Notes: generated by a model from the letters alone, not told the origin. A DNA stretch of 64,000 nucleotides from Escherichia phage vB_EcoM_TU01 (MZ560701); one strand, 5' to 3'. Positions 745 to 34,498 are shown, counted from the stretch's first letter. A program made the numbers and translations.

Positions 745-775
745 AGCCCCTTCCGAAAGGTTGGGGCTTTTTTGT
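745..775 (+). terminator. rho-independent terminator
   Basis: agcccc...ggggct stem followed by T6; near-identical copy at 16915-16944. Confidence 0.7.
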
Positions 776-782
776 ATAAATA
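775..782 (+). promoter_or_regulatory. late promoter TATAAATA
   Basis: Exact TATAAATA about 35 nt upstream of ATG 818. Confidence 0.4.
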
Positions 783-817: not shown

Positions 818-1444
818 ATGTATACTTTTAATGAATTTTTAGCCGAAACGGAAGTAATCACCGAAGCCGGTGTACGTATGACAAAAGAGAAATGGCAAGC
901 TGCTTACGATGCTATTTCTGGTACAAAAACTAGTACAGAGTTTTTCAAAAACGTTCAAGCCATGTACGGTATCGACACTTCGAGCCAAAAAGAATATTAC
1001 AGAGCTTCTAAAGCATTCAAAGATATTGTTAGTGGTGGTGTTTCTGCTAAATCTGGTTCGCCTAAAGTAAAACCTGCTCCTACCATTCCTAAACCTGCGG
1101 CCCCTAAAGCAATAGCAAAACCTGAGCCTAAGCCTGAAGTAAAAGCAACTCCTAAAGCTCCTGCTCTTAAGTTTGATACTTCTAGCCTGGAAAAAAAATA
1201 TAAACAACTATCTTCGCTTGTTCGCGATATTGAATCCGATACATCTTCACTCGTTCGTGAATTCAATATTCTTCGCAATGGCCAACATATCAACAACCTT
1301 GATACCCCAGACCTTTATCGTCTTTATTTGACTATCGAAGGTTTGAAGTATACTCAACCACTTCACGATGCGATTAAAGAAAAACTTCGTCAGGCAGGTC
1401 GTTTGGCTGCTGACGCTGCTCAGTATGCAAAAACTCGTAAGTAA
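818..1444 (+). CDS. internal-protein-like protein with capsid-targeting-type N-terminus (MYTFNEFLAE) and Pro/Ala/Lys-rich linker
   Basis: ORF with aagga RBS; N-terminus matches the MKTYxEFxxE motif of T4 internal proteins; low-complexity KPAPTIPKPAAPK region. Confidence 0.6.
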   Translation: MYTFNEFLAETEVITEAGVRMTKEKWQAAYDAISGTKTSTEFFKNVQAMYGIDTSSQKEYYRASKAFKDIVSGGVSAKSGSPKVKPAPTIPKPAAPKAIAKPEPKPEVKATPKAPALKFDTSSLEKKYKQLSSLVRDIESDTSSLVREFNILRNGQHINNLDTPDLYRLYLTIEGLKYTQPLHDAIKEKLRQAGRLAADAAQYAKTRK

Positions 1445-1449
1445 AGAAT

Positions 1450-1470
1450 GGGGACTTCGGTCCCCTTTAG
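1450..1470 (+). terminator. UUCG-tetraloop hairpin (terminator or RNA-stability element)
   Basis: ggggac-ttcg-gtcccc then ttta; immediately after stop codon. Confidence 0.4.
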
Positions 1471-1496
1471 GGGGTCTATAACTTACTGAAAAAGTT

Positions 1497-1525
1497 GTTT
1501 ACTTCTTCCCTAGATGTGTTACTAT
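1497..1525 (+). promoter_or_regulatory. early promoter
   Basis: GTTTAC, 17 nt spacer, TACTAT, then ATAGACCTATCAA motif. Confidence 0.55.
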
Positions 1526-1553
1526 AGACCTATCAAAACATGAGGAGAATATT

Positions 1554-1859
1554 ATGAGTCTTTACACTGAACTGAATAAAAAATCTGAAGAATCTGCTGA
1601 AACTATTTTTAAAAACGTGCAAAAGCGTATTTTAGAAAAGATGTATAACACTGCAGCTAAAGGTGAAAAATCTTGCCGGTTTCCGATTAGGTGTTCTTCA
1701 GATTTATGCGCAAATACTATTGAATGGCTGGAAAGTGAAGGTCTTACGGTAGAGAAAAACCCGGCGACTTCTATTGACAGCGAATCATATATTAGTATTT
1801 CTTGGGATAAACCACGTATGAATGAAGGACACTACAAGTTGTTAAGTTGGAAAAATTAA
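1554..1859 (+). CDS. hypothetical protein (101 aa)
   Basis: ORF with gaggag RBS. Confidence 0.55.
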   Translation: MSLYTELNKKSEESAETIFKNVQKRILEKMYNTAAKGEKSCRFPIRCSSDLCANTIEWLESEGLTVEKNPATSIDSESYISISWDKPRMNEGHYKLLSWKN

Positions 1860-1869
1860 AAATAATGAT

Positions 1870-1898
1870 GTACAAGCACCAAGGATGGTGATACTATA
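1870..1898 (+). promoter_or_regulatory. early promoter
   Basis: GTACAA -35-like, 17 nt, TACTAT then AGACTTATCAA. Confidence 0.45.
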
Positions 1899-1927
1899 GA
1901 CTTATCAACTACAGAGGAGTAAACAAA

Positions 1928-2092
1928 ATGACTACTTTAATTATTTGGTTCGATGAAAATGAAGAAACATACTGTGTGAATATTGGTGAAAGTCCAATGC
2001 CTGAATTTGAATCCTCAGATAAAAACTCTGTTGTATCTTGGGCTGAAGGTTATAAAGCAGCTAAAGGTGACGTTGAAATAATTTACATCTAA
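1928..2092 (+). CDS. hypothetical small protein (54 aa)
   Basis: ORF below track cutoff; agaggag RBS before ATG 1928. Confidence 0.45.
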   Translation: MTTLIIWFDENEETYCVNIGESPMPEFESSDKNSVVSWAEGYKAAKGDVEIIYI

Positions 2093-2111
2093 GTAAGTTT
2101 ATGTTATAGTA
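2082..2111 (+). promoter_or_regulatory. early promoter
   Basis: TTTACA, 18 nt, TATAGT then AGTCCTATCAA. Confidence 0.4.
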
Positions 2112-2138
2112 GTCCTATCAAATCAAGAGGAAAACAAA

Positions 2139-2366
2139 ATGGCTACAGTTAGTATTGATGTCGTTGATTATGAATACACCGAAGAAGTTATTCGCAACCG
2201 TCACCCTGAAGTTCGTATCGATTCAGTCCAAGATTCCAAGTTCTGGACAACTGAGCTTAATCTGAGTGGTCCTTATGAAGCCGTTAAGAAGTTCATGGTT
2301 GAAGAATACTGNGAAGGCATGCACCCNGAAGACGCCGAGTTTTATGTCAATTTGATTAAAAAATAA
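2139..2366 (+). CDS. hypothetical protein (75 aa)
   Basis: ORF with agagga RBS. Confidence 0.5.
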   Translation: MATVSIDVVDYEYTEEVIRNRHPEVRIDSVQDSKFWTTELNLSGPYEAVKKFMVEEYXEGMHXEDAEFYVNLIKK

Positions 2367-2401
2367 TTTACAAACTCTTGAGAGCAGAGTATAATGCTCT
2401 C
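2367..2401 (+). promoter_or_regulatory. sigma70-type promoter TTTACA-17-TATAAT with inverted repeat gagagc/gctctc flanking the -10
   Basis: Consensus-like elements; 44-nt block 2371-2414 is repeated exactly at 32984-33027. Confidence 0.55.
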
Positions 2402-2436
2402 ATTGGATAATAAACCACCAATTGAAAGGTAATAAT

Positions 2437-3030
2437 ATGAACACACTGAAGAAACTTGTTGAATTCATCCGCACTAAACTGGGTACTGCTATGGCTAAAA
2501 ATCTGACTGTCGAAGAACAGTATAACGCAGCTGCAGATAAGTTGATTACCCAAATCAAAGAACTAAAAACGGCTTCTGTTAAATCTATTAATGAAGAAAA
2601 ACGTATTCGCGAACTTGTTAATGAAAAGAACAAGCAAGCNGCTTCTAAGGAACGTGAAATTCGTAAGCTCCTGGCTGAAGGACAAGATGTTACCATGCAT
2701 GCTAAGCTTGGTCTTCTGTATCGTCGAACTGCCGAACAACTTAATACAAAAGCTGACGGGTATGCCGCTATGCGAATTGAAATTGCTCGTAAGGTGGTTG
2801 AACTTGANGATGCTCGTCAGAATCTGGCAATCAAACTCGAATACATTCGTGAAACTCGAGCAGCCAATGCCCTTGGTATCTCTACGGCTGATGATGTAAT
2901 TGAAATCGCTGCACTGACTAAGGTTGATATCGAAGACACTCTGACTCGTGTTGAAACGTTCAATGGCACTCCAGCTGGTGTCGAAACCACTTCTGCNGAT
3001 GTACAAGAATATATTAACTCTTTGAAATAA
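2437..3030 (+). CDS. hypothetical protein (197 aa), coiled-coil-like
   Basis: ATG 2437 preceded by aaagg RBS; track start 2422 is TTG. Confidence 0.55.
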
Positions 3031-3038
3031 AATAATAC

Positions 3039-3061
3039 GGAGGACTCCGGTCCTCCTTTTG
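3039..3061 (+). terminator. rho-independent terminator
   Basis: ggaggac-tccg-gtcctcc then TTTT. Confidence 0.65.
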
Positions 3062-3079
3062 GATAATAAAGGAGTTAAC

Positions 3080-3676
3080 ATGCGAAACCAAAATAATGAT
3101 ATTGACTCAATGTTCGAAGAGTTCCGAAATAAGGTAAATCCACCTACGTCTTTAGTTGATTCATTACGATATGTTGCAACTGGACGTAAATGGTACTGGT
3201 CGTCTTCTTATGAGACAACTGAATATGCAAATAACCGAAAATCTTTATTAGCCCCAGGTATTATGATTCATGATATCGGAGCTATTGCTAAACTAGTTGC
3301 AGACCATGATATTAGATTCACTGATTTCGTTGCTCCTACATGGTCTGTTTGTTGTTTAAACACTGAATGGGACTATATCAGTGAACGTTCAGATGATTAN
3401 NTAGGCTTTAGAGATAAGCTTTTAAGGTCTAACATGTTTTATATTGATACNGAAGTTCTGGTCAATAATAAAAAATACTACTTCACTTTAATCGTCGATT
3501 CTGAAACTATGTATGAAGGCAAGCCTTTGCTTAAAAGAGTTGATGCTTTAAGTGCTATTGATGCGCTTTATGAAACCATGGTTGTTAGTCCTAATTTCAC
3601 TAACAATTTAATCCTTGAGCAATTTATTATGGAATGTAGAGAATATGTCAAAGCCAACCCTNTACATGCCAATTAA
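3080..3676 (+). CDS. hypothetical protein (198 aa)
   Basis: ATG 3080 after aaggag RBS. Confidence 0.55.
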   Translation: MRNQNNDIDSMFEEFRNKVNPPTSLVDSLRYVATGRKWYWSSSYETTEYANNRKSLLAPGIMIHDIGAIAKLVADHDIRFTDFVAPTWSVCCLNTEWDYISERSDDXXGFRDKLLRSNMFYIDXEVLVNNKKYYFTLIVDSETMYEGKPLLKRVDALSAIDALYETMVVSPNFTNNLILEQFIMECREYVKANPXHAN

Positions 3677-4040
3677 GCCCTGGGCNTANGAATACAAACG
3701 TAAATTAATCCCAAATGAAGTACTATTTGGCCCTATTTTAGCTTTAGCATTTTTAATCTTTATGATTATAGGAGCTGTTTTAGATTCTAGTGAAGTTATA
3801 TCGTCTGATGCAGNGTTTTTACTTATTATACCCGGGTCGTTTATTNTACCNTTTTTATTAATGCCTATTAACTGGGTGGGATATTGGNACCAAGGACGTC
3901 ATCACAGAGCCCGATTAAGAGAATGGAAAGTTCAGTGCGCAAAAGCCCAAGCTCAGTATGATGAAGCTGTTAAAAAGTATGAATANGAAGAAGCTATGGA
4001 ATTCGTTAAGGAAATAAGANGCAAAAGCCTCAACTCTTAA
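3666..4040 (+). CDS. hypothetical membrane protein
   Basis: Hydrophobic segments; start uncertain (ATG 3615, 3645 or 3666). Confidence 0.4.
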   Translation: MPIKPWXXEYKRKLIPNEVLFGPILALAFLIFMIIGAVLDSSEVISSDAXFLLIIPGSFIXXFLLMPINWVGYWXQGRHHRARLREWKVQCAKAQAQYDEAVKKYEXEEAMEFVKEIRXKSLNS

Positions 4041-4081
4041 CCGTACGGCCTTCTCTTGGTGAGAACATTCTAATTTTTATT

Positions 4082-4378
4082 ATGAGTATTGGCATGGGAT
4101 TTGCCTTTGGATTAGTTGGATTTCTTATTGACGGCGTTGTGTTAGGATTTATAGGGAACACTGGTGGATTCACAGACCAATGGCAGGACTTACGGTATAC
4201 CCAAGCCTTTGCATCCATCGCATCATTTTGTACTGTAGTCTATTTTTACTACGATTTTATAAACCATAACAAGAAAAATAAAAAGGTTTACGCTTCTCAA
4301 ATGATTAGTTATAATGAACTCCTAGCTAGACGTGAAAATGAAACAATCGAAAACTTTATTAAGGAATGTAGAAAATGA
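4082..4378 (+). CDS. hypothetical membrane protein (98 aa)
   Basis: Hydrophobic N-terminal half; ORF. Confidence 0.5.
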   Translation: MSIGMGFAFGLVGFLIDGVVLGFIGNTGGFTDQWQDLRYTQAFASIASFCTVVYFYYDFINHNKKNKKVYASQMISYNELLARRENETIENFIKECRK

Positions 4379-4680
4379 GTAAGATTATTGAAATTAAAGT
4401 ACCAGAGTTTAANGATGCCAAATCCGCTTCAGATGCAATTTATAAACTTCTGAATCAAGCTGAACGTATCGAAGAAGAAGCAACAAAGATCGCAGACCAA
4501 TATGCCGTATCATTTTCTGTAGGTGATTATGGTAGCGGTCGTACTTATTATCCTAAGGGTGAAATCGTATCCCAGTGGATGAAAAATGAAATTGAAAATA
4601 ATGGTGGCGATGTTAAGCGTGAAGGTAATGGTTACGTTATTACTGAAGGTGCTTGGGTTTCGTCTTCTGCGTTGTGCTAA
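4375..4680 (+). CDS. small protein, paralog family member 1 (C-terminal EGAWVSSSALC)
   Basis: Tandem ORF; conserved C-terminal tail shared with the next two ORFs. Confidence 0.55.
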   Translation: MSKIIEIKVPEFXDAKSASDAIYKLLNQAERIEEEATKIADQYAVSFSVGDYGSGRTYYPKGEIVSQWMKNEIENNGGDVKREGNGYVITEGAWVSSSALC

Positions 4681-4689
4681 GGAATCATT

Positions 4690-4962
4690 ATGTCTAAAGA
4701 ACAAACCGAACTGGCTGAAGCTGTAGCAAAAATCTATGCAGCTATTGAGGCTGCCAAAGAAATTGCTGATAAACAAAACACAACATTCGACTTGTATCCA
4801 GCTTATGGTATGGGTGGAACATATCATTCACCCGGACAGCTTAAAGCCGATCTTGAACGTTGTACAAAAAACGGCTATGCTGAATGGGCNGACGTTTACC
4901 AATACGACTACAACCTNAGCCTCGAAACNGGNGGTTGGATTGCATCTTCTCACACTTGCTAA
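4690..4962 (+). CDS. small protein, paralog family member 2 (C-terminal GGWIASSHTC)
   Basis: Tandem ORF, shared C-terminal motif. Confidence 0.55.
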   Translation: MSKEQTELAEAVAKIYAAIEAAKEIADKQNTTFDLYPAYGMGGTYHSPGQLKADLERCTKNGYAEWXDVYQYDYNXSLEXXGWIASSHTC

Positions 4963-4971
4963 GGAAACCAT

Positions 4972-5169
4972 ATGTCTCGTGAATTAGATTGTGCTGTACG
5001 TACGGCAGTAGCTGCTCTGGAAAACCTGTTCCAAATTGCAACAGAAGAACGCGAAGAAGTTACATTATGGATTGAAGATAACGCAGGNCTGAATCTCCAG
5101 AACGCAATCTCGTTATCAAATAATAGTATTACTGTTCAAGGCTGGGTATCNTCTAGTTATTCTTGCTAA
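4972..5169 (+). CDS. small protein, paralog family member 3 (C-terminal QGWVxSSYSC)
   Basis: Tandem ORF, shared C-terminal motif. Confidence 0.55.
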   Translation: MSRELDCAVRTAVAALENLFQIATEEREEVTLWIEDNAXLNLQNAISLSNNSITVQGWVXSSYSC

Positions 5170-5173
5170 AACA

Positions 5174-5203
5174 GTTTACAACAAGATAGGGCTATGTTAT
5201 AGT
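5174..5203 (+). promoter_or_regulatory. early promoter
   Basis: GTTTAC, 18 nt, TATAGT then AGnCCTATCAA. Confidence 0.5.
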
Positions 5204-5231
5204 AGNCCTATCAAATTAAATGGAGTCCACA

Positions 5232-5471
5232 ATGATTTATTANGAAAGTATTGGAACCNAAGTGGTTGCTAAAACCATTACTCGTGAAAAGTTTGCAAAG
5301 ATATTCGATATGCGTTATAAAAAATCTGAACACAAAGGCATCCGNTTCGAAGATGCACACTGNACAATTTGCCCTTATAATGAAGACATAAANGGTACAA
5401 TCGTTCCATTGGTAGAGGCTTCACACGATGACCTCTGGGATGAATATAATATCGCATGTCGTGAAATTTAA
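5232..5471 (+). CDS. hypothetical protein (79 aa)
   Basis: ATG 5232 after tggag RBS. Confidence 0.45.
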   Translation: MIYXESIGTXVVAKTITREKFAKIFDMRYKKSEHKGIXFEDAHXTICPYNEDIXGTIVPLVEASHDDLWDEYNIACREI

Positions 5472-5495
5472 GTTAATTAATCCGAGGAAAATATT

Positions 5496-6452
5496 ATGAT
5501 GTTAGTTATTGGTTCTCGTGCACTTCACTATCATGGCCTTATTGATTCTAACGCTATCAAAAATAGTGATTGGGACTTTATTGCGGACCAAGGTTCTTGG
5601 AATGCATTCAAAAATCAAATGATGGGTGTATATGTTCACCAAGATAACCCTGATGTCCAAGTTTTCAAATGCTTCCATAANGGACGCGAAACTCATTTTG
5701 AAGCATATATTGTTCCGGCAATCACTAATGTCCGTGAATTAGTAGGTGAACTCACTCCTGAAGATTTCACGTCTTCTTATGACCTTTTAAAATACGCCAA
5801 GAAAAATTTGACTAAAGACCGTTTGAACGGGTTTTACTGGGCAACTCCTGAGATATGTCTTGCAATTAAGATGTCTCATCGTTTCAAGAAAAATAATCCA
5901 TTCTTTTTAAAGACTATGAACCATATTCAGTATCTTCGTGGTAAAGGTGTTACACTGAACGATGAACTTACTGAAATTATGCTGAAACGCCAGAAAGAAA
6001 CCTTGAACTATGCTCACCCAGTTCTTGACACTTCTAAAAGTGCGTTCTTTAAAGATGANATCTATACATATGACCATGATACTATTCATGAAGCCATTGC
6101 ACTAACAGACCGTCCAGCGTATACATTTTATATGAAAGACGGTTCTGAAGTCATGACCTCACGCGAGAAGTTCGAATCGTTACCAGAAATGGTCAAATTG
6201 GCCGGTGTATATGAAGAATCATGTGTACTAGCATTAGAACGTTCTCAGATTCCTAATGACTTTAAAATTAACCCTGAAGCCAGTTTTATGATGGCATTAG
6301 AAAAAGTCTGCACAAGCATCACCTCNGGTTGGTTCCGTGAATACGCCTGGGAAAACTACAGCAAAGTAGTAAGTATGTACCAAAGCTTAGGACACGACGA
6401 TTACGTCAAACGTTTCAAACAAAATTTNCATATGGTAAAACCTTTCAAATAA
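5496..6452 (+). CDS. hypothetical protein (318 aa)
   Basis: Long ORF with gaggaaa RBS; no motif recognised. Confidence 0.6.
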   Translation: MMLVIGSRALHYHGLIDSNAIKNSDWDFIADQGSWNAFKNQMMGVYVHQDNPDVQVFKCFHXGRETHFEAYIVPAITNVRELVGELTPEDFTSSYDLLKYAKKNLTKDRLNGFYWATPEICLAIKMSHRFKKNNPFFLKTMNHIQYLRGKGVTLNDELTEIMLKRQKETLNYAHPVLDTSKSAFFKDXIYTYDHDTIHEAIALTDRPAYTFYMKDGSEVMTSREKFESLPEMVKLAGVYEESCVLALERSQIPNDFKINPEASFMMALEKVCTSITXGWFREYAWENYSKVVSMYQSLGHDDYVKRFKQNXHMVKPFK

Positions 6453-6464
6453 TTTCACAAAACT

Positions 6465-6494
6465 GTTTACAAGGTCTGTAGTTGTTGATACTAT
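6465..6494 (+). promoter_or_regulatory. early promoter
   Basis: GTTTAC, 18 nt, TACTAT then AGACCTATCAA. Confidence 0.55.
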
Positions 6495-6532
6495 AGACCT
6501 ATCAAAACAAATGAGTGAATGGAGATATAAAA

Positions 6533-6733
6533 ATGACTACTTTGAATAAACGTTTCGGTAAAGCTAAACCTGGTTGTGCAGCAGAACGTCGTTATGTTTT
6601 CGCTCAGTTAGAAGATGTAGAGTATCAGATTAATCAAGTTCACATTACTGGTATCGAGCCTATGTGTGGCCTTGAAGCTCTTCGTGAAGTTCGTGATGGG
6701 TATCGTCGTGACATCGAAGAAATGTCAAAATAA
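6533..6733 (+). CDS. hypothetical protein (66 aa)
   Basis: ATG 6533 after ggag RBS. Confidence 0.45.
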   Translation: MTTLNKRFGKAKPGCAAERRYVFAQLEDVEYQINQVHITGIEPMCGLEALREVRDGYRRDIEEMSK

Positions 6734-6763
6734 GTGTACAAACTNATAGGNCTATGTTATAGT
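6734..6763 (+). promoter_or_regulatory. early promoter
   Basis: GTGTAC, 18 nt, TATAGT then AGTCCTATnAA. Confidence 0.45.
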
Positions 6764-6789
6764 AGTCCTATNAACATGAGGAGAATATT

Positions 6790-7095
6790 ATGAAATTAAC
6801 AGAAACCAATCGAATCGGTCTTTTAACAATATTTGCATCACCTTTTTACGCAGCCCTTTCTGTTGCAGTATTACAAAAGGCTTACGATATGGATGGTGTT
6901 CCTGGTTTTGTATTCTTATCGCCGTTTTTGCTATTCGTCGGAGCATTGTTATTATATGCCACGACTAGTTTCGACCATAATGTCTGGGTCAATTATAAAT
7001 GTAAATTGTCTGAAGAAGAACACGCAGAAGCTCGTAAAAAAGCTATTGAATCTACCAATCTAGAAAATTTCATTAAAGAATGTCGAGGAAAATAA
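6790..7095 (+). CDS. hypothetical membrane protein (101 aa)
   Basis: Two hydrophobic segments; gaggag RBS. Confidence 0.5.
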   Translation: MKLTETNRIGLLTIFASPFYAALSVAVLQKAYDMDGVPGFVFLSPFLLFVGALLLYATTSFDHNVWVNYKCKLSEEEHAEARKKAIESTNLENFIKECRGK

Positions 7096-7096
7096 T

Positions 7097-7783
7097 ATGA
7101 ATAGTTCTAAAGTGTTTAATAGTCAAGCTCGTGCAGTAGGTGGTTTTGCTGGCGGTATTTCTAATGATAAAATCAAAAACGAGCCTATGTTCTTNAACTG
7201 TAGTTTAGAATTTGCTTTTAATAATGGCGGNCCNATTACTCGTAGCTTCATCATGAACTTGCCGGATGATTGGAACACTGACCAGGTTGTATTTGATTCA
7301 CGAGTCCACATGCTGATGCCTGGTTGGTATCCTGCTATTCCTGGATATCACCATGANGACGTACCACGCCCTGATATTCCAGTTGGTCAACACTTTATTA
7401 CTGCAGGACAACCTGATTATGACAATCCTCGCTATTTGTCTGAACATATTCTTGGTCTTGTTAACGCTGACGTGTGTCCTACTCATTTTGCAACAGGAAC
7501 TGCAGAGTTCAGTCAGATTCCTGATGGCGAACTTATCTATCGTCAGTGGCACAAAGAAGTCCTCGAAAAAATTGAAAAAGGTGAACTAGAGAAATGGGAA
7601 GCTCCAGATCGTACTCTTCTTCAGTTTGATTGGCAAACATGGCACACNGGTTCTCGTGCAGTAAGTAATGGATGGCGCTGGTTCGGACGTGTATCTCGTA
7701 ATACAGACCGAGTTAAAAAGATTACCAATGAAATTCGTGTCAATGCTCAAGTTTATCTGGAATTCCCTATGGAAGGCTGGTAA
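7097..7783 (+). CDS. hypothetical protein (228 aa)
   Basis: ORF; HH-x-D...H residues noted but no fold assigned. Confidence 0.5.
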   Translation: MNSSKVFNSQARAVGGFAGGISNDKIKNEPMFXNCSLEFAFNNGXXITRSFIMNLPDDWNTDQVVFDSRVHMLMPGWYPAIPGYHHXDVPRPDIPVGQHFITAGQPDYDNPRYLSEHILGLVNADVCPTHFATGTAEFSQIPDGELIYRQWHKEVLEKIEKGELEKWEAPDRTLLQFDWQTWHXGSRAVSNGWRWFGRVSRNTDRVKKITNEIRVNAQVYLEFPMEGW

Positions 7784-8274
7784 TGATTAACAAAACATAT
7801 TGGTCTAATATAGACGATGGCAATGAAGGTATTTCATACTATTCAGTAGATTGGACAGGATGTCCATCCTACTTAGTGAAACATATTTGCCAAGAATTTA
7901 AAATCGACCAGCCAGCAGGTATTATCGTGAACAGATACATTAATGGATATCAACCTATCGATGAAGTAATACGAACAACTCAAGCTGAGCTTGAAANGTT
8001 TTTCAATAAGTGCCAATGGATAACAGGATGGATTATATTTGTACCGTCTATATGGTTTTTCAGTACTAAGGTGAGTTCTTTCGGTTTTGTTGATATTATT
8101 GCTATCTTATTAGCATCTAGTATCATAAGTGTTGTTGGTGGCATCATTGGCGGCGGTACTGCAGCCATCATTATTAATCTTGTTAAAAGTAGTTTACAGG
8201 AACGTAAAGACAAGATAAANGCCAAGAATAATGAAGTTGAACGTTTTATTACCGAATGCAGGAATTTGAGATGA
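7783..8274 (+). CDS. hypothetical membrane protein (163 aa)
   Basis: Hydrophobic core segments; start overlaps upstream stop. Confidence 0.5.
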   Translation: MINKTYWSNIDDGNEGISYYSVDWTGCPSYLVKHICQEFKIDQPAGIIVNRYINGYQPIDEVIRTTQAELEXFFNKCQWITGWIIFVPSIWFFSTKVSSFGFVDIIAILLASSIISVVGGIIGGGTAAIIINLVKSSLQERKDKIXAKNNEVERFITECRNLR

Positions 8275-8507
8275 GTATAGCAATTTACATTAAATCAGAA
8301 TCATGTGATAGTTATCTGTACACATACGATAAAGATGTGTCAGAAGAAAAAATCAAAGACGACCTTAATATGGACCTTGATTTGTTCCGTCCTATTGCAG
8401 ATTACAAACTTGCGGTCTCTAATAGTGAAAGTCCATCTAAAGAAACGCGCATTGAAGAATTTATGTCCAAATTAATGGCCAAATCATGGGACCGAGATGA
8501 TGAGTAA
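8271..8507 (+). CDS. hypothetical protein (78 aa)
   Basis: ATG 8271 overlapping upstream stop. Confidence 0.45.
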   Translation: MSIAIYIKSESCDSYLYTYDKDVSEEKIKDDLNMDLDLFRPIADYKLAVSNSESPSKETRIEEFMSKLMAKSWDRDDE

Positions 8508-8955
8508 GAAAAATAAAGTGAAAGAACTATCAGCCGGTATTATTTTCCTTACCGAAGATAAAGAATTATTCATGGGGCGTGTAACTGGTTCTCGTCCTAA
8601 AGGTTCTTTAGCTCATCGGTGGGATATTCCTAAAGGTCGTGTCGAGCCCGGTGAATCTCCTATCGAAGCCGCTATTCGTGAATGCGAAGAAGAAACTGGG
8701 TTTACACAATACGACCCTGCCTTCCTGAAAGACCTAGGTGAACATCATTACTCAGACAATAAGAATATTCATCTGTTCCTATATACCATCCCTGTAGAGC
8801 ACGAGCAATTCAGAAACAGTGTTTGTAATTCCTATCATACGTTCCCAGACGGACGACAGATTCCTGAATTTGATGCATTCGCTTTAATTAAACCTTCTCA
8901 ATGGGAATATGTAATGGGCAAATCATTATATAAGGTGCTCACTACCCTCCTATAA
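8497..8955 (+). CDS. nudE: Nudix hydrolase
   Basis: Nudix box GRVEPGESPIEAAIRECEEETGF; sits immediately upstream of lysozyme as in T4. Confidence 0.85.
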   Translation: MMSKKNKVKELSAGIIFLTEDKELFMGRVTGSRPKGSLAHRWDIPKGRVEPGESPIEAAIRECEEETGFTQYDPAFLKDLGEHHYSDNKNIHLFLYTIPVEHEQFRNSVCNSYHTFPDGRQIPEFDAFALIKPSQWEYVMGKSLYKVLTTLL

Positions 8956-8989
8956 GTAATAAATACCTCCTATAAACGTGGGAGGTATT

Positions 8990-9478
8990 ATGAATATATT
9001 TGAAATGCTTCGTAATGACGAAGGTCTTAGACTGACTTTATACAAAGACACTGAAGGCTTTTGGACGATTGGCATAGGCCATTTAGTAACAAAGAACCCG
9101 TCTTTAGCCGTAGCTAAAGCTGAACTTGACAGAATGATCGGACGTAAATGCAACGGTACAATTACCCTTGATGAGGCTGAAAAGCTATTTAATGAAGACG
9201 TTGATAAAGCTGTTCGCGGAATCTTGGGTAATGCTAAACTTAAACCGGTATATGATTCTTTAGATGCGGTTCGTCGATGTGCATTGGTCAATATGGTCTT
9301 CCAAATGGGTGTAACAGGCGTCGCTGGTTTTACTAATTCTCTTCGTATGCTTCAACAGAAACGTTGGGATGAAGCGGCAGTAAATCTAGCCCAATCTAAA
9401 TGGTATCGTCAGACACCTAATCGCGCGAAACGCGTAATCTCAACATTTAAAACAGGAACTTGGAAAGCGTATATATGA
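8990..9478 (+). CDS. e: lysozyme (endolysin, T4 e type)
   Basis: [31 protein letters not shown] closely matches T4 lysozyme; ggaggt RBS; track start 8978 is GTG. Confidence 0.95.
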
Positions 9479-9756
9479 AAACATATAGTGAATTTTTATC
9501 AGAATCTATTCTTAACGAAGCTACTGACACATTTGCAACTAAGCTAGGTGCAGCTTTGGTTGAAGCTGAAAGTCTATTAGCACGTATTTCTGAACTTGCT
9601 AGTAAGATAGATACTCGCAAATTTGAACGTACCAGTGATATCGTTAAGCTTGAAGCCTTGTTGCGTATGTGCGATAAACCGGAAGAAATCGCTAAGAACG
9701 GCTCGCTGATGAAACAACGTCTTGAAAAATATATTTCAGGCGCTTCAGAAAAATAG
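9475..9756 (+). CDS. internal-protein-like protein ([11 protein letters not shown]-terminus)
   Basis: Capsid-targeting-type N-terminal motif. Confidence 0.6.
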
Positions 9757-9757
9757 T

Positions 9758-9787
9758 GTTTACTTCCTCCAAGGACTTTGATACTAT
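9758..9787 (+). promoter_or_regulatory. early promoter
   Basis: GTTTAC, 18 nt, TACTAT. Confidence 0.5.
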
Positions 9788-9814
9788 ACATTCATCAACT
9801 ACTTGGAGGAAATT

Positions 9815-10228
9815 ATGACTCGTATCAATTTAACACTTGTTTCTGAACTGACCGACCAACATCTTATGGCTGAGTATCGTGAATTACCACGCGTATTTGG
9901 TGCAGTCCGTAAACATGTTCAAAACGGTAAACGTGTAAAGGATTTTAAAATCTCTCCAACATTTATCTTAGGCACAGGTCACGTAACATTCTTTTACGAC
10001 AAACTCGAATTTTTACGTTTACGACAAATCGAGCTAATCGCTGAATGCTTGAAACGTGGTTTCAAAATCAAGGACACGACTGTCCAGGATATTTCCGACA
10101 TCCCTGCCGAATTTCGTAATAATTATGTCCCGTCCGAAGCGTCCATTGCGATAAGTCAAGCACGCTTAGATGAAAAAATTGCTCAGCGCCCGACTTGGTA
10201 CAAATACTATGGTAAACCAATTTACTAA
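9815..10228 (+). CDS. denV: endonuclease V (pyrimidine-dimer DNA glycosylase)
   Basis: [35 protein letters not shown] closely matches T4 DenV. Confidence 0.9.
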
Positions 10229-10234
10229 GGAAAA

Positions 10235-10351
10235 ATGAAAATGTATCAAGAATTTATCACTGAAGCAGATGACAAAGGTCCTAAAGTAGATGTTGACGAT
10301 ATTGGATACGATTTTAACAACTTCGGAATTATTTCTGGCGGTAAAGCTTAA
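10235..10351 (+). CDS. small internal-protein-like peptide (MKMYQEFITEA)
   Basis: 38 aa ORF with capsid-targeting-like N-terminus. Confidence 0.35.
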   Translation: MKMYQEFITEADDKGPKVDVDDIGYDFNNFGIISGGKA

Positions 10352-10354
10352 ACG

Positions 10355-10384
10355 GTTTACGCTTAAGTGTTAATATGGTATAAT
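10355..10384 (+). promoter_or_regulatory. early promoter
   Basis: GTTTAC, 18 nt, TATAAT. Confidence 0.55.
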
Positions 10385-10414
10385 TACTCTATCAAAACAA
10401 ACAAGGAAACAAAA

Positions 10415-10729
10415 ATGAAAACGTATAAAGAATTTATTGCAGAATCCGCCAACCAACGCGTTGAAGGTGGTTATATTTGGATTGAACAAGTTGAGCCACC
10501 GAGCCGCACTTCTACAGGTAAATGGAAAATTACTGTTGATGGTCCTGGTGGTAAACGTAGGACTCTTAAAGAAATTAATGGGTACTATGAAGAAGCTCTT
10601 TCGGATGCAGGAACTTACATGATGCAAATCATGATTAAAAACCCTGAAAACCGTTTTGCAGCTAAAGTCTTCCGTCGCATCGGTAATAAACTTTATGACG
10701 CATACTCTAAAAACTTCCCTAAAGAATAA
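10415..10729 (+). CDS. internal-protein-like protein (MKTYKEFIAES)
   Basis: Capsid-targeting-type N-terminus. Confidence 0.65.
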   Translation: MKTYKEFIAESANQRVEGGYIWIEQVEPPSRTSTGKWKITVDGPGGKRRTLKEINGYYEEALSDAGTYMMQIMIKNPENRFAAKVFRRIGNKLYDAYSKNFPKE

Positions 10730-10755
10730 CATAAATTAAAACAATAGGAACAAAA

Positions 10756-11058
10756 ATGAAAACNTATNAAGAATTTATNACTGAAGCGCGCGTAACTGCG
10801 GGTAAATTAGAAGCCGCTATAAATAAAAAGGCTCATTCATTTCATGATTTGTCCGATAAAGACCGTAAGAAACTTGTAAGCCTTTATATTGACAAAGAGC
10901 GTATTCTCGCTCTTCCTGGCGCTAATGAAGGTAAACAGGCCAAGCCTTTGAATGCTGTCGAAAAGAAAATTGATAACTTTGCTTCTAAATTCGGTATGTC
11001 TATGGACGACCTTCAGCAAGCGGCTATCGAAGCAGCTAAAGTAATTAAAGGTAAATAA
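10756..11058 (+). CDS. internal-protein-like protein (MKxYxEFxTEA, 100 aa)
   Basis: Capsid-targeting-type N-terminus; size fits a T4 ipII/ipIII-type gene. Confidence 0.65.
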   Translation: MKXYXEFXTEARVTAGKLEAAINKKAHSFHDLSDKDRKKLVSLYIDKERILALPGANEGKQAKPLNAVEKKIDNFASKFGMSMDDLQQAAIEAAKVIKGK

Positions 11059-11060
11059 CA

Positions 11061-11090
11061 GTTTACTTTCTCCTAAAATTGTGATAGTAT
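11061..11090 (+). promoter_or_regulatory. early promoter (diverged duplicate of the denV promoter)
   Basis: GTTTAC, 18 nt, TAGTAT; block resembles 9758-9940. Confidence 0.5.
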
Positions 11091-11115
11091 ATTCATAATT
11101 ACTTGGAGGGGTAAA

Positions 11116-11244
11116 ATGACTTATATTAATTTGACTTTAGTATCTGAACTTGCTGATCAACATTTAATCGCAGAATACCGTGAANTGCCNCGTGTTTTTG
11201 GTATAGTTCGTAAACATGTGGCAAAAATATTTACATTCAAATAA
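11116..11244 (+). pseudogene. truncated denV paralog (N-terminal 42 codons only)
   Basis: [35 protein letters not shown] then premature stop; full denV is at 9815. Confidence 0.6.
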
Positions 11245-13357: not shown

Positions 13358-13816
13358 ATGACTATCAATTCAGACGTTTTTATCCGCCGTAATAAACTCC
13401 GTCGAATCTTTGAAACGGAGTTCCGCAAAATAAATGCCGGTATAAAAGATGCTGCAAAGTCTCTTGGACTACCAGGCTTTCATATCAAGTATTCTCAACA
13501 TCTCTTAGATCGTGCCATCCAGAGAGAAATAGATGAGAACTACGTTTTTGAATTATTTCGTAAAGTAAAAAATCATGTTAAAGAAGTTGCAGAATTTTTA
13601 TCAATGCCGGCACGTCCAGATGTTGATGAAGATTTTGTCGAAGGCGTCGAATATCGCCCAGGCCGTTTAGAAATAACTGACGGAAATCTTTGGTTAGGAC
13701 TTACAGTTTGTCGCGAAAATCCAGCATTCAAAATGAAGACTCTTCAATGCAGAATGGCTATTATTAACAGTAAACGACTACCAGGAAAAGCTTCTAAAGC
13801 AGTGATTAAAATCTAG
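13358..13816 (+). CDS. regB: RegB site-specific endoribonuclease
   Basis: Matches T4 RegB as recalled (MTIN...FIRRNKLRR...LEITDGNLWLG...CRMAIINS..LPGKASKAVIK); correct position after denV. Confidence 0.8.
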   Translation: MTINSDVFIRRNKLRRIFETEFRKINAGIKDAAKSLGLPGFHIKYSQHLLDRAIQREIDENYVFELFRKVKNHVKEVAEFLSMPARPDVDEDFVEGVEYRPGRLEITDGNLWLGLTVCRENPAFKMKTLQCRMAIINSKRLPGKASKAVIKI

Positions 13817-13824
13817 AGGTAAAC

Positions 13825-14367
13825 ATGAGAAAAGCACTACTCGCTGGTCTATTTGCTCTTTCGTTATCAGCACATAGCTCCGAGCATACTTTTAGTAATG
13901 TCCAACTCGATAACTTGAATTATGCTTATCAGTTTGGGGAACAGTTTTCTAAGGACGGAAAATTTAAAACGCATGAAAATATGCATAAGAAAGGACTTGG
14001 ATACATAATGGCCGCAATACTATGGCAGGAATCATCTGCCGGTATTAATCTTAAAGATAAGAAAGGTCACCATGCGTATGGAATGTTCCAAAATTATCTA
14101 CCAACAATGAGGGCAAGAATTAACCAGCTTGGTTATAATATGACTGATGCCCAAATTAAGAAAATGCTATCTAAGCGGTCTAATTCAGCCAGATGGGCTT
14201 ATATCGAATTTTCTTATTGGTTAAATATACATAATGGGGATATAAGAAAAGCTATATCCTCATATAACGCGGGATGGAAGACAAGTGCTGGAAGTAAATA
14301 TGCTTCTGAAGTCCTAGAAAAGGCCAATTACCTTAAATCAAATAAACTACTGGAAATAAAAGAATGA
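13825..14367 (+). CDS. secreted lytic-transglycosylase-like protein (T4 vs.1 position)
   Basis: Signal peptide MRKALLAGLFALSLSA; WQESSAG motif resembles the SLT catalytic E-S. Confidence 0.55.
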   Translation: MRKALLAGLFALSLSAHSSEHTFSNVQLDNLNYAYQFGEQFSKDGKFKTHENMHKKGLGYIMAAILWQESSAGINLKDKKGHHAYGMFQNYLPTMRARINQLGYNMTDAQIKKMLSKRSNSARWAYIEFSYWLNIHNGDIRKAISSYNAGWKTSAGSKYASEVLEKANYLKSNKLLEIKE

Positions 14368-31791: not shown

Positions 31792-32036
31792 TTAGTTTAG
31801 ATTCAAAGAAAGTTGTTCTAACCCTTAAAGTTGATGACGAGCGTCTAGTATTCGTTACCATTTCCGATTTGCATGTTGAAATTGCTAATGGCGTCCGTAC
31901 TTATCAAACGTCTAAAACACAATGGGACTATATCCCAATGTTGACGCTTACTCAGCGTTTAGAATCAATCGGTCTTAAAGACCTTTCAGTAAGTGAAGTG
32001 AATTTTATCAAACGCATTGTATCAATCAACCTCTGA
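31788..32036 (+). CDS. hypothetical protein (82 aa)
   Basis: ORF. Confidence 0.45.
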   Translation: MISLDSKKVVLTLKVDDERLVFVTISDLHVEIANGVRTYQTSKTQWDYIPMLTLTQRLESIGLKDLSVSEVNFIKRIVSINL

Positions 32037-32043
32037 GGTACTT

Positions 32044-32337
32044 ATGGGTAAAACGTATCGTCGTAAAGATTTGAAAGTTCGTGATTACGACTATTTTGGT
32101 AAACGTAAAGCTCCTGACGGTGTTAGCCACAAAGACATGGTTGAAAACATATTCCGCTCAGATAAATGGAAACGTATGAAAGGCGTTGATTCCGAAGTCA
32201 AGAACGAAATGAATCGACAACTCCGCAAAGAAGTTCGTAAGTTGAAAAAAGATGTTTACAGTAAAGAAGATTATGATTATAATACTTCTCATACTGAAGC
32301 CAAACGTAAAGCCAACGAATGTTATCGTTACAGTTGA
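32044..32337 (+). CDS. hypothetical basic protein (97 aa)
   Basis: ORF with gagg RBS. Confidence 0.45.
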   Translation: MGKTYRRKDLKVRDYDYFGKRKAPDGVSHKDMVENIFRSDKWKRMKGVDSEVKNEMNRQLRKEVRKLKKDVYSKEDYDYNTSHTEAKRKANECYRYS

Positions 32338-32344
32338 GGAAATT

Positions 32345-32479
32345 ATGAATATCAAACGAATGCTTTTTAAGCAGGGATTATATACTTTAAATGTTAATCC
32401 AAAGGGTGATACAACTAAATGGTCTGTAAATGACTGGATTAAGTTCATCGACGAAAATGGGGCGTGGAACACAAAATGA
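32345..32479 (+). CDS. hypothetical protein (44 aa)
   Basis: Short ORF with gagga RBS. Confidence 0.35.
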   Translation: MNIKRMLFKQGLYTLNVNPKGDTTKWSVNDWIKFIDENGAWNTK

Positions 32480-32676
32480 ATCCTGAAAATATTGTGTCAT
32501 GGCAACTTCGTGAAGAACGTGCCAAATTCTTTGCCAACATGAAACTCAACGGTGTTGAGGATGAAGACTTTTTACGTTGGTTCTGGATTTACAAATACAA
32601 AGAATGCCAACATGCTGTGCTATTGACTTGCGCAGCTATGTACGAAGGCTGGAAAGGCGCTAAAAAGTTCGGTTAA
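32476..32676 (+). CDS. hypothetical protein (66 aa)
   Basis: ORF. Confidence 0.45.
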   Translation: MNPENIVSWQLREERAKFFANMKLNGVEDEDFLRWFWIYKYKECQHAVLLTCAAMYEGWKGAKKFG

Positions 32677-32979
32677 TAATGTACAACGATAGGAAGACAT
32701 GTTATTATCTTCCTATCGTCTTAAAATGAGGAAAATATCATGGCCCAAGAATTAGANNNNNNNNNNNNNNNNNNNNNNNNNNNNNNNNNNNNNNNNNNNN
32801 NNNNNNNNNNNNNNNNNTATGACATTTTAACAGATGCTATTACTGTTAGTTGTGGTGGAAANNNNNNNNNNNNNNNNNNNACTGAAAACAAATACCCAAT
32901 CTATAAAGGCATCTTTGATATGGGTGTTGATATTAGNNNNNNNNNNNNNNNNNNNNNNNNNNNNNNNNNNNNNAAATAA

Positions 32980-33014
32980 TGCACAAACTCTTGAGAGCAG
33001 AGTATAATGCTCTC
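32980..33014 (+). promoter_or_regulatory. sigma70-type promoter with inverted repeat around TATAAT (second copy of the 2371-2414 element)
   Basis: Exact 44-nt repeat 32984-33027. Confidence 0.55.
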
Positions 33015-33045
33015 ATTGGATAATAAAATAACCGAGGAAAATAAT

Positions 33046-33378
33046 ATGTCTACTAAAATCAAAAACGTAGTTAATTCTTTCGCTTTCGATAAAGTTGTTG
33101 CTCTTCTGGAATCCGGCAATATTGTTACTCCTCAAGTTCTTGACGCGTGGGAATTCCGTCTTTATGAAATCATGCAAAAACACGACCAGAAAATTGGACG
33201 TAATTCTATTCGTGAAATTCTAGTACAATATATTCTTTCTGAATTTGACGTTGCTGCATTTGGTGTTGAATCTAAAGCTTATCAGAAACATGAAATCTCT
33301 GAAAAGACTATCCGTCGTATGAAAAATCAACGTAAGAAAAAATTCGTTGACCTGAAAATTGTTAAGGCGGTAAAATGA
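33046..33378 (+). CDS. hypothetical protein (110 aa)
   Basis: ATG 33046 after gagga RBS. Confidence 0.55.
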   Translation: MSTKIKNVVNSFAFDKVVALLESGNIVTPQVLDAWEFRLYEIMQKHDQKIGRNSIREILVQYILSEFDVAAFGVESKAYQKHEISEKTIRRMKNQRKKKFVDLKIVKAVK

Positions 33379-33602
33379 GCGTATTAACAGAAACTTTGAT
33401 TAATGACCTGCGTCTAGCTGGTTACGAAGTTGGTACAAATAGTCTAGGTCTTTCTCAGATTGAAGGGCTTGGATTTATCCTAGAATATGAATTCAAACAA
33501 TGGTGGCTATATGCTACGGCTGACGATGCGTTGAATATTGATTTCGTTGACCAATTTGATTCGTTGGATGCTGCTCTTGAAGCAGCAAAGGAACTAGAAT
33601 GA
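33375..33602 (+). CDS. hypothetical acidic protein (75 aa)
   Basis: ORF. Confidence 0.45.
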   Translation: MSVLTETLINDLRLAGYEVGTNSLGLSQIEGLGFILEYEFKQWWLYATADDALNIDFVDQFDSLDAALEAAKELE

Positions 33603-33868
33603 AATTAACTCGAATCAGTATAACTGAAGAAAAGCTGGGCGAATTTTATGTTGACGAATACATGAAAGTCACGTATTTTCCATTCGTTAAAGGTGTTGGT
33701 TTTTGGGAAACTCATGTATCTCAATTAAACGAAGGCGACTATAACGAAACACATGAGAACTTTTTAGATTTTCTTTATAATGCCGGTCTTACTGAGCTTT
33801 ATATCGATATCCATGAGTTCAAACGTTTAATGGAAAAAGTGTTTCAGGCTTATTGTTTGCTCCGATAG
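33599..33868 (+). CDS. hypothetical protein (89 aa)
   Basis: ORF. Confidence 0.45.
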   Translation: MKLTRISITEEKLGEFYVDEYMKVTYFPFVKGVGFWETHVSQLNEGDYNETHENFLDFLYNAGLTELYIDIHEFKRLMEKVFQAYCLLR

Positions 33869-33940
33869 TATCTCGTGCTTTAAGATAGGTCTCTAAATAT
33901 TATGATATAATAGACCTATGAATTGAGCCAAGAGGTACTT

Positions 33941-34498
33941 ATGACTGAACAAAAACCTAAAAATAACTATGTGAATAATAAAGAGCTTCTCGCCGCTATA
34001 ATCGAGTGGAAAAAGGAGCTCTTAAATAATAAAGACCCAAACAAAATTATTCGTCAGAATGATACCATCGGTTTAGCAATTATGCTTATCGCCGAAGGCC
34101 TGTCCAAACGTTTCAACTTTTCAGGATATACCCAGTCTTGGAAGCAGGAGATGATTGCAGATGGGATTGAAGCCTCTATTAAGGGACTTCATAATTTCGA
34201 CGAAACTAAGTACAATAACCCACATGCATACATAACTCGAGCTTGTTTTAATGCTTTTGTCCAACGTATCAAAAAAGAACGTAAGGAAGTTGCAAAGAAA
34301 TATAGTTACTTCGTTCATAATGTCTACGACAGTCATGACGATGATATGGTAGCGTTGGTAGATGAAACGTTTATTCAAGACATCTACGATAAAATGACGC
34401 ATTATGAAGAATCCGCTTATAAAGCTCCTGGGGCTGAAAAGAAGGAAGTTGTTAGCGATTCGCCTAGTTTGGATTTTTTATATGAGGATGACAATTGA
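33941..34498 (+). CDS. 55: late-transcription sigma factor gp55
   Basis: [51 protein letters not shown] closely matches T4 gp55. Confidence 0.95.

Follow-up and report, generated by a model that had tools for sequence, protein, structure and literature searches.

What might five small phage genes be doing if they all open with nearly the same ten residues? The question is raised by a 64 kb stretch of Escherichia phage vB_EcoM_TU01 (MZ560701), analysed as one strand and called the window here (all coordinates are window positions), in which an earlier note had recognised the N-terminal pattern of the T4 internal proteins (IPs), which are packaged into the head and injected with the DNA. We think that this is probably right, and would put at roughly 0.78 the probability that these are genes of T-even IPs, tagged for loading into the head and for injection. 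Judged by its sequence, the shared N-terminus is the capsid targeting sequence (CTS) of T4 together with a site for the gp21 protease.

The five open reading frames (ORFs), all on the + strand, encode products of 208 amino acids (818-1444, leader MYTFNEFLAE), 93 amino acids (9475-9756, with LSE as leader residues 8-10), 38 amino acids (10235-10351, MKMYQEFITE), 104 amino acids (10415-10729, MKTYKEFIAE) and 100 amino acids (10756-11058, MKTYxEFxTE, where x is masked: three leader bases are N, and the closest genome, vB_EcoM_JS09, has MKTYQEFITE at that place). The motif M-[KY]-[TM]-[YF]-x-E-F-[LI]-x-E opens exactly these five, and a six-frame scan of all 64 kb, made with a strict pattern (M[KY][TM][YF]xEF[ILV]xE) and a looser version of it, found no match to either beyond the five starts. 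Neither pattern occurred in 100 shuffles (0 matches), while the 7-residue core averaged 0.13, and the claim that five ORFs share an N-terminus therefore stands at every start. A Shine-Dalgarno-like AGGA or AAGGA lies 6-9 nucleotides 5' of each ORF, and in four of them the ribosome-binding site (RBS) and leader together form a family of 37-nucleotide direct repeats with 70-86% DNA identity. JS09 has a sixth gene with such a leader, IpI, immediately upstream of the stretch that corresponds to the window. That genome is a close relative but not the same one: the first 12.5 kb of the window is 97.4% identical to JS09 96001-108498 by Megablast, with 276 substitutions and 51 masked N separating the two; on this sequence likeness the window is assigned to a Mosigvirus (an RB69-like T-even phage), with JS09 as its closest genome.

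Why should ten residues say so much? Foreign proteins can be loaded into the T4 head by no more than the ten opening residues of IPIII (MKTYQEFIAE); of these, residues 4 and 7 matter for targeting, whereas processing depends on residues 8 and 10 (PMC9026906). Tyrosine or phenylalanine at position 4, F7, leucine or isoleucine at position 8 and E10 are kept in all five ORFs, which bears out the reading of their N-terminus as the T4 pattern. The gp21 protease cleaves after glutamate, its known sites in Alt (ITE-6 and LTE-619) have the form [L/I]-x-E, and several sites within one propeptide are common (PMC5694885). Residues 8-10 of the five leaders give predicted gp21 sites LAE, LSE, ITE, IAE and (I)TE, the last with its masked codon taken from JS09. 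Further sites are predicted at ITE16/A in the 818 product and LNE15/A in the 9475 product (the slash marks the cut), resembling the ITE19/A that ends the 19-residue propeptide of IPI. The annotation of JS09 also includes, at 56-66 kb and so beyond the window, gp21, gp22, gp67, gp68 and Inh, for the prohead core and the protease that take up and cut CTS-bearing proteins.

If the T4 scheme applies, the N-terminal CTS of about ten residues would dock each product onto the gp22-based scaffolding core during prohead assembly and, once the shell is closed, the prohead protease gp21 would cut after E10 in the [L/I]-x-E context, freeing the mature protein in the head; the 818 and 9475 products would be cut a second time, at E16 or E15 respectively. 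The DNA would then be packaged around the IPs, which would be ejected with it into the next host, where they could act ahead of any phage gene expression.

How far does the likeness to IPs extend beyond the leader? Three of the ORFs belong, as whole proteins, to IP families that already have names (10756 to IpII, 10415 to Ip10, and 9475, which is Ip5-like), which supports the internal-protein identity proposed for them, and 10235 shows whole-protein homology as a derivative of RB69p125. IpII aside, the IPs of the window share only about 11 residues with one another and with the IPs of T4. These four genes (9475, 10235, 10415 and 10756) sit between e and vs.8, and this is the polymorphic IP locus e-ipIII-ipII-denV-vs.8; the other such locus is 57B-ipI-trna.4, and the 818 gene is in neither.

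One member is the IpII orthologue at 10756 (leader MKTY(Q)EF(I)TE/A; phrog_7857, E=4e-55), which is 91-93% identical to T4 IPII (ipII, NP_049734) over all 100 residues. The two have the same length, leader, IxE/A site and place beside denV/vs.8; they differ by 7-9 substitutions, and in the window Ip10 precedes the gene instead of ipIII and a truncated denV copy follows it. T4 IpII abolishes defence by the single-chain (fused) form of GmrSD (bioRxiv 2023.04.06.535777), and the 10756 product most likely inhibits modification-dependent restriction of the same single-chain GmrSD type, to go by its sequence. The Klebsiella Jiaodavirus ValerieMcCarty04 has an IpII allele (WKM80648.1) with about 98% identity to the one in the window, and the published tables for CsCl-purified virions of that phage list it with 26 peptide-spectrum matches (PSMs; PMC13119998 supplementary data). 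Its earliest listed peptide follows R12 and none begins before residue 13 (PMC13119998), as expected if the leader is removed. This match to a Klebsiella phage is also far closer than that of the whole genomes, which implies a recent transfer of the cassette between genera.

Ip10, at 10415, carries the leader MKTYKEFIAE/S and is annotated in JS09 as 'Ip10, similar to phage Pol CAA84455'. Its identity is 72% with the Ip10 of SP18/VR25 and 96% with a 'putative internal head protein' of Tequatrovirus teqhal (gene order there e-denV-Ip10-Ip4), and across annotated Ip10 proteins overall the identity is 72-97%. On its 5' side, at 10356-10384 (+), lies a sigma-70/T4-early-like promoter (TTTACG-17-TGnTATAAT; 10/12 matches, with a TG extension), and a similar box, GTTTAC...TACTAT, precedes ipI in JS09. 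The Ip5 relative at 9475, whose start overlaps the stop codon of the lysozyme gene e (ATGA), matches the phrog_3499 family 'internal head protein' (E=1e-46), carries that annotation in JS09 too, and is 48-52% identical over about 90% of its length to the Ip5 of T2/RB32 and to bas37_0261. Unlike Ip5, the Ip5-type gene of the window is in the e-denV locus and not in that of ipI. Ip10 (phage Pol, SP18, VR25, teqhal) and Ip5 are two of the polymorphic IP families that go back to Repoila et al. 1994. By analogy with better-studied IPs, the 9475 and 10415 products are probably injected effectors.

What would such effectors do? To our knowledge, the IP targets known so far are limited to those of IPI, IpII and Bas37_0260. 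T4/RB69 IPI (as IPI*, an inhibitor of the two-subunit GmrS/GmrD) exemplifies the principle of a CTS-tagged injected inhibitor and is homologous to none of the five ORFs, the IPI orthologue of this lineage being the upstream gene already mentioned. Bas37_0260, a CTS-bearing McrBC inhibitor described in the HIDEN-SEQ preprint, comes from phage Bas37 (KarlGJung, MZ501089), where it neighbours the Ip5 relative bas37_0261. Its leader (MKTYQEFIAE) and its logic as an injected inhibitor of type IV restriction are alike; its body is similar to that of none of the window ORFs, so its function is not transferable, and we rejected it as a function for any of them. Among the four ORFs other than 10756, no homology to IPI or Bas37_0260 was found. 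IPIII is an anti-defence factor, on ECOR17 (PMC9391042), and IPs are not discussed in the Petrov 2010 review. Reasoning from these precedents, an injected anti-defence role is the most likely one for the Ip5-like protein, for Ip10 and for the 208-amino-acid protein.

This last protein deserves a closer look. Its gene (phrog_2280, function not assigned) follows, in order, tRNA-Arg (2-78), ORF150c and the counterparts of rnaD (442-555, 86% identical to T4 by blastn) and rnaC (564-702, 98.6% identical by blastn), and is itself followed by frd.3 and e.6. The rnaD and rnaC counterparts are without annotation in the JS09 record, and an Rfam search of 430-830 returned no family. T4 homology past rnaC reaches about 777, and so takes in a GC-rich hairpin (AGCCCC...GGGGCT plus a T-run) at 745-773 (+) that, read from the sequence, appears to end the tRNA/rnaD/rnaC transcription unit; the family gene of PG7, Marfa, phiA85 and VMC04 likewise has a similar hairpin before it. 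Next comes a perfect T4-type late promoter box, TATAAATA, at 775-782 (+), 36 nucleotides upstream of the ATG at 818, and then an AAGGA RBS. Only six such boxes occur in the 64 kb, all on the + strand. The box has the same relative place in PG7, phiA85 and VMC04, and versions with one mismatch stand there in Marfa, Kosakonia 305 and Q7622. Just past the stop codon of the gene lies a palindromic GC-rich hairpin, GGGGACTTCGGTCCCC, at 1450-1465 (no strand assigned), and the two hairpins likely bracket a single-gene late unit. A second perfect box lies within the IpII coding sequence at 10818-10825, 62 nucleotides past its start; it may have arisen by chance or may serve the genes downstream as a late promoter.

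The layout of the product, in a structural model, is a leader, a helical N-domain, a disordered Pro/Ala/Lys-rich linker (about residues 74-113) and a confident three-helix C-domain. Its size had been called unusual, which does not hold up, because the predicted mature product (192 amino acids, 21.2 kDa, pI 9.8) has essentially the size and charge of IPIII* from T4 (183 amino acids, 20.4 kDa, pI 9.7; the precursor, ipIII, NP_049735, has 193). The leader is of the same type in both. The two differ in that similarity ends after the first 11 or so residues, in locus (after tRNA/rnaC for the 818 gene) and in the two-domain-plus-linker layout with swappable C-domains, and as similarity is confined to the leader we rejected the idea that the 818 gene is an IPIII orthologue.

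The family is small but widespread in T-even genomes, and public records always annotate it as 'hypothetical'. When 1.84 billion proteins are clustered at 50%, it has 13 representatives; there are about 400 records in all, with 143 in this branch, 87 in a Klebsiella/Enterobacter branch and 165 in a Tequatrovirus branch. The genera are Mosigvirus, Dhakavirus, Tequatrovirus, Karamvirus, Kanagawavirus, Marfavirus and Jiaodavirus, and T4 itself has no member. The same slot after the tRNA cluster is occupied in PG7, Marfa, Potts1, Kosakonia 305, Q7622, phiA85, VMC04, Bas37 and RB69, with bas37_0243 and the split RB69 pair ORF149c+148c as distant full-length relatives (profile E = 3e-17). This RB69 pair (13429-13991 of the RB69 segment examined) aligns jointly with the single 187-residue bas37_0243, so that the RB69 copy seems to be interrupted, whether by a frameshift or by an error of sequencing. 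In some relatives the N-domain and linker persist and are joined to unrelated C-domains, of which there are at least three types. Compared over nine loci, the leader keeps positions 4, 6, 7, 8 and 10 through differing codons, whereas 2, 3, 5 and 9 drift.

Is this protein, or indeed the whole set, truly packaged? Several points weigh against our answer, and we set them out together. Searches of Pfam and NCBIfam with all five ORFs gave no significant family; a PDB sequence search with the 818, 10415 and 9475 products returned nothing, a fold search gave a generic result only, and the AlphaFold model of Ip10, built on 4 sequences in the alignment, has a mean confidence (pLDDT) of 49 and is unusable. 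None of this pointed to a target for the Ip5-like protein, Ip10 or the 208-residue protein. The one NCBIfam hit, between the Pro/Lys linker and a TonB spacer, scored 17 bits against a cut-off of 315 and was discarded as low complexity. The promoter of Ip10 is of early type, and a perfect late promoter stands only before the 818 gene. That gene is outside both classical IP loci, and its product has no similarity to the body of any T4 IP, the likeness being in the leader only. The virion mass spectrometry comes from published tables of another phage, ValerieMcCarty04, not from the phage of the window. Finally, VMC04_131 (WKM80661.1), a distant relative of the 818 product, has no PSM rows in those purified virions, while the table does list the flanking WKM80662 and WKM80663 and two IPs.

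These points bear most directly on a serious minority alternative, namely that the 208-amino-acid protein is a late protein and not a stable, abundant component of the virion, with a CTS-like leader that does not lead to injection; it might act in assembly or with the scaffold and exit the head once processed, or it might be a late protein of the cytoplasm. In its favour, VMC04_131 went undetected where 135 proteins, including the two IPs, were found, the 818 gene keeps a fixed syntenic slot across many genera, away from the classical loci and unlike the hypervariable IPs, and all of its roughly 400 public relatives are called hypothetical. However, the undetected relative shares only the N-domain with the 818 product, its leader is one residue shorter (MKFKDFLTE) and its C-domain is different, so that non-detection lowers confidence in packaging without refuting it. 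Against this alternative, too, nothing in the family is better conserved than the leader positions needed in targeting and cleavage, while elsewhere its members have drifted apart to about 30% identity, and members from Dhakavirus, Tequatrovirus and RB69 open with the canonical MKTYNEFLNE or MKTYAEFLTE. The protein also has only one internal [LI]xE site, which argues against a gp22-like degradation to small peptides. A literature search for virion proteomics of the family yielded the VMC04 table as the sole usable dataset, and it is negative; virion data for HY01 were set aside as irrelevant, this being a T4-type phage with five gel bands analysed. On balance, we think that the 818 gene probably encodes a further packaged protein at a third locus beside the tRNA/rnaC cluster, and this is the least certain step of our reading, the odds for packaging itself being about even or slightly better. 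More tentatively still, and somewhat short of an even bet, the gene may mark a third, unannotated T-even IP locus for modular injected proteins, in which a CTS leader and a conserved helical N-domain would be joined, through a basic Pro/Ala/Lys linker with a possible affinity for DNA, to a C-terminal effector domain open to exchange; the whole would form a general scaffold for anti-defence delivery and stand in functionally for IPIII.

And the shortest of the five? The ORF at 10235-10351, of RB69ORF125c type, aligns end to end with the intact 86-residue gene of LF82-3 and RB69 (RB69p125), from which it differs by an in-frame deletion of 48 codons between GPK and NPK. By sequence comparison it is a decayed deletion allele of this 86-residue IP, and not a full gene, which corrects the earlier note, where it was listed among the five. 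It is unlikely, in our view, that it now makes a functional mini internal peptide (28 residues, acidic, after cleavage). Such a peptide is suggested by the in-frame deletion, by the retention of the leader, the ITE/A site and the native C-terminus, and by some 38 phage records that have alleles of 90% identity or more. Yet the deletion takes 48 of the 76 mature residues, chance alone keeps the frame in 1 of 3 cases, RB69 and LF82-3 still carry the intact form, and the ends fall between short GPK/NPK repeats, as is typical of slippage or illegitimate recombination.

The deletion is one of three changes that set the window apart from its sister phage LF82-3, where the order is e, Ip5-like, denV, 86-residue IP, IpII, vs.8. 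The second is the Ip10 cassette, which LF82-3 lacks and which is inserted between duplicated junctions. The third, at 11061-11244 (+) between IpII and vs.8, is a segment with no counterpart in LF82-3, comprising a duplicated denV promoter box and a truncated second denV (42-45 codons; direct repeats D2 and D4; annotated in JS09) that is 75-77% identical to the start of the full denV (9758-9918) and has the look of a scar left by recombination on the border of the IP locus. Evolution of the e-denV-vs.8 locus proceeds through the exchange of cassettes, with recombination probably at the repeated 37-nucleotide RBS-plus-leader segment and at the duplicated denV and promoter sequences. Recombinational shuffling at conserved flanks is attributed to Repoila et al. 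1994, with >30 IP variants (PMC2839356). RB69 has a different set again (an Ip10-like ORF124c, ORF123c and an extra IP, p156, beside ipI), and the loci scanned there hold five ORFs that match the leader pattern and two more with partly degenerate leaders. The set of the window is thus expanded, as had been proposed, when it is compared with T4 (3 genes), but this is no special feature, RB69 being similar and >30 variants being on record.

Could the set have been chosen to suit the DNA that it travels with? The suggestion had been made that a different DNA modification might call for different injected proteins, and in its strict form, that the IP set is matched specifically to Mosigvirus DNA with its arabinosyl-cytosine, we consider it quite improbable. 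It has some appeal, since Mosigvirus DNA, with 5-arabinosyl-deoxycytidine (5-arabinosyl-dC) and ara-ara-dC, is still cut by enzymes of the GmrSD/BrxU families (PMC13390438, PMC13326640), so that injected inhibitors are needed, and the window has no IPIII orthologue. However, IpI, IpII and Ip10 are common to phages with glucosyl-hydroxymethylcytosine: IpI is 87% identical to T4 IPI and IpII, as we have seen, is nearly that of T4, and Ip10 has its 96% identical match in Tequatrovirus teqhal. Ip5 relatives occur in T2, RB32 and Bas37, the IpII with about 98% identity is in a Klebsiella Jiaodavirus, and the 208-residue superfamily extends to Tequatroviruses. Within Mosigvirus itself the IP sets of RB69, LF82-3 and vB_EcoM_TU01 differ. 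RB69 IPI is four residues off T4 IPI and protects against GmrSD (PMC6024577). Since the IP families are common across genera, the repertoire has been exchanged regardless of modification, and what the sequences resemble is a shuffled pool and not a modification-matched set.

Least probable of all is the idea that the shared N-terminus is a conserved DNA cassette, serving translation initiation or recombination and not protein targeting: the 37-nucleotide repeats do mark recombination junctions and conserved flanking blocks were noted by Repoila et al. (as cited in PMC2839356), but the 208-residue superfamily keeps the peptide while its codons vary (TTT/TTC/TAT, ATT/TTA/CTC/CTG, GAA/GAG), in T4 a foreign protein needs no more than the first ten residues of IPIII to be packaged (PMC9026906), and the two roles can coexist.

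A few observations concern the neighbourhood. The genes of this part of the window run tRNA-Arg, ORF150c, the 208-residue ORF, frd.3, e.6 to e.2, nudE, e, denV, vs.8, vs.7 and vs.6, which is the T4 map order reversed. Three tandem small ORFs at 4375-4680, 4690-4962 and 4972-5169 (of RB69ORF139c/137c/136c types) have a common C-terminus, W-[VI]-x-S-S-x-x-C, which suggests a paralogous mini-family. The predicted membrane proteins e.4, e.3, ORF133c and e.2 (3615-4040, 4082-4378, 6790-7095 and 7783-8274) carry a C-terminal motif, (E)xF[IV][KT]E[CI]R, that comes after their hydrophobic segments. The window contains 270 masked N, and translations at 32000-34000 are unreliable because 117 of these fall within that 2 kb.

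What, then, does the locus teach us? The IP gene set has been known, and known to be variable, since 1994, and in this respect the locus adds nothing conceptually new; the modest new point is a leader-bearing, late-promoted, modular family of 208-residue proteins at a third syntenic site that annotation has missed. The locus is of course also a clean example of cassette shuffling at a leader sequence. IPs meet the defences of the host before any other phage molecule does, and a catalogue of leader-bearing genes provides a short list of candidate injected anti-defence factors. Should the 208-residue family prove to be packaged, its design of N-domain, linker and C-domain would offer a handle for finding effectors and for engineering the delivery of proteins by T-even capsids.

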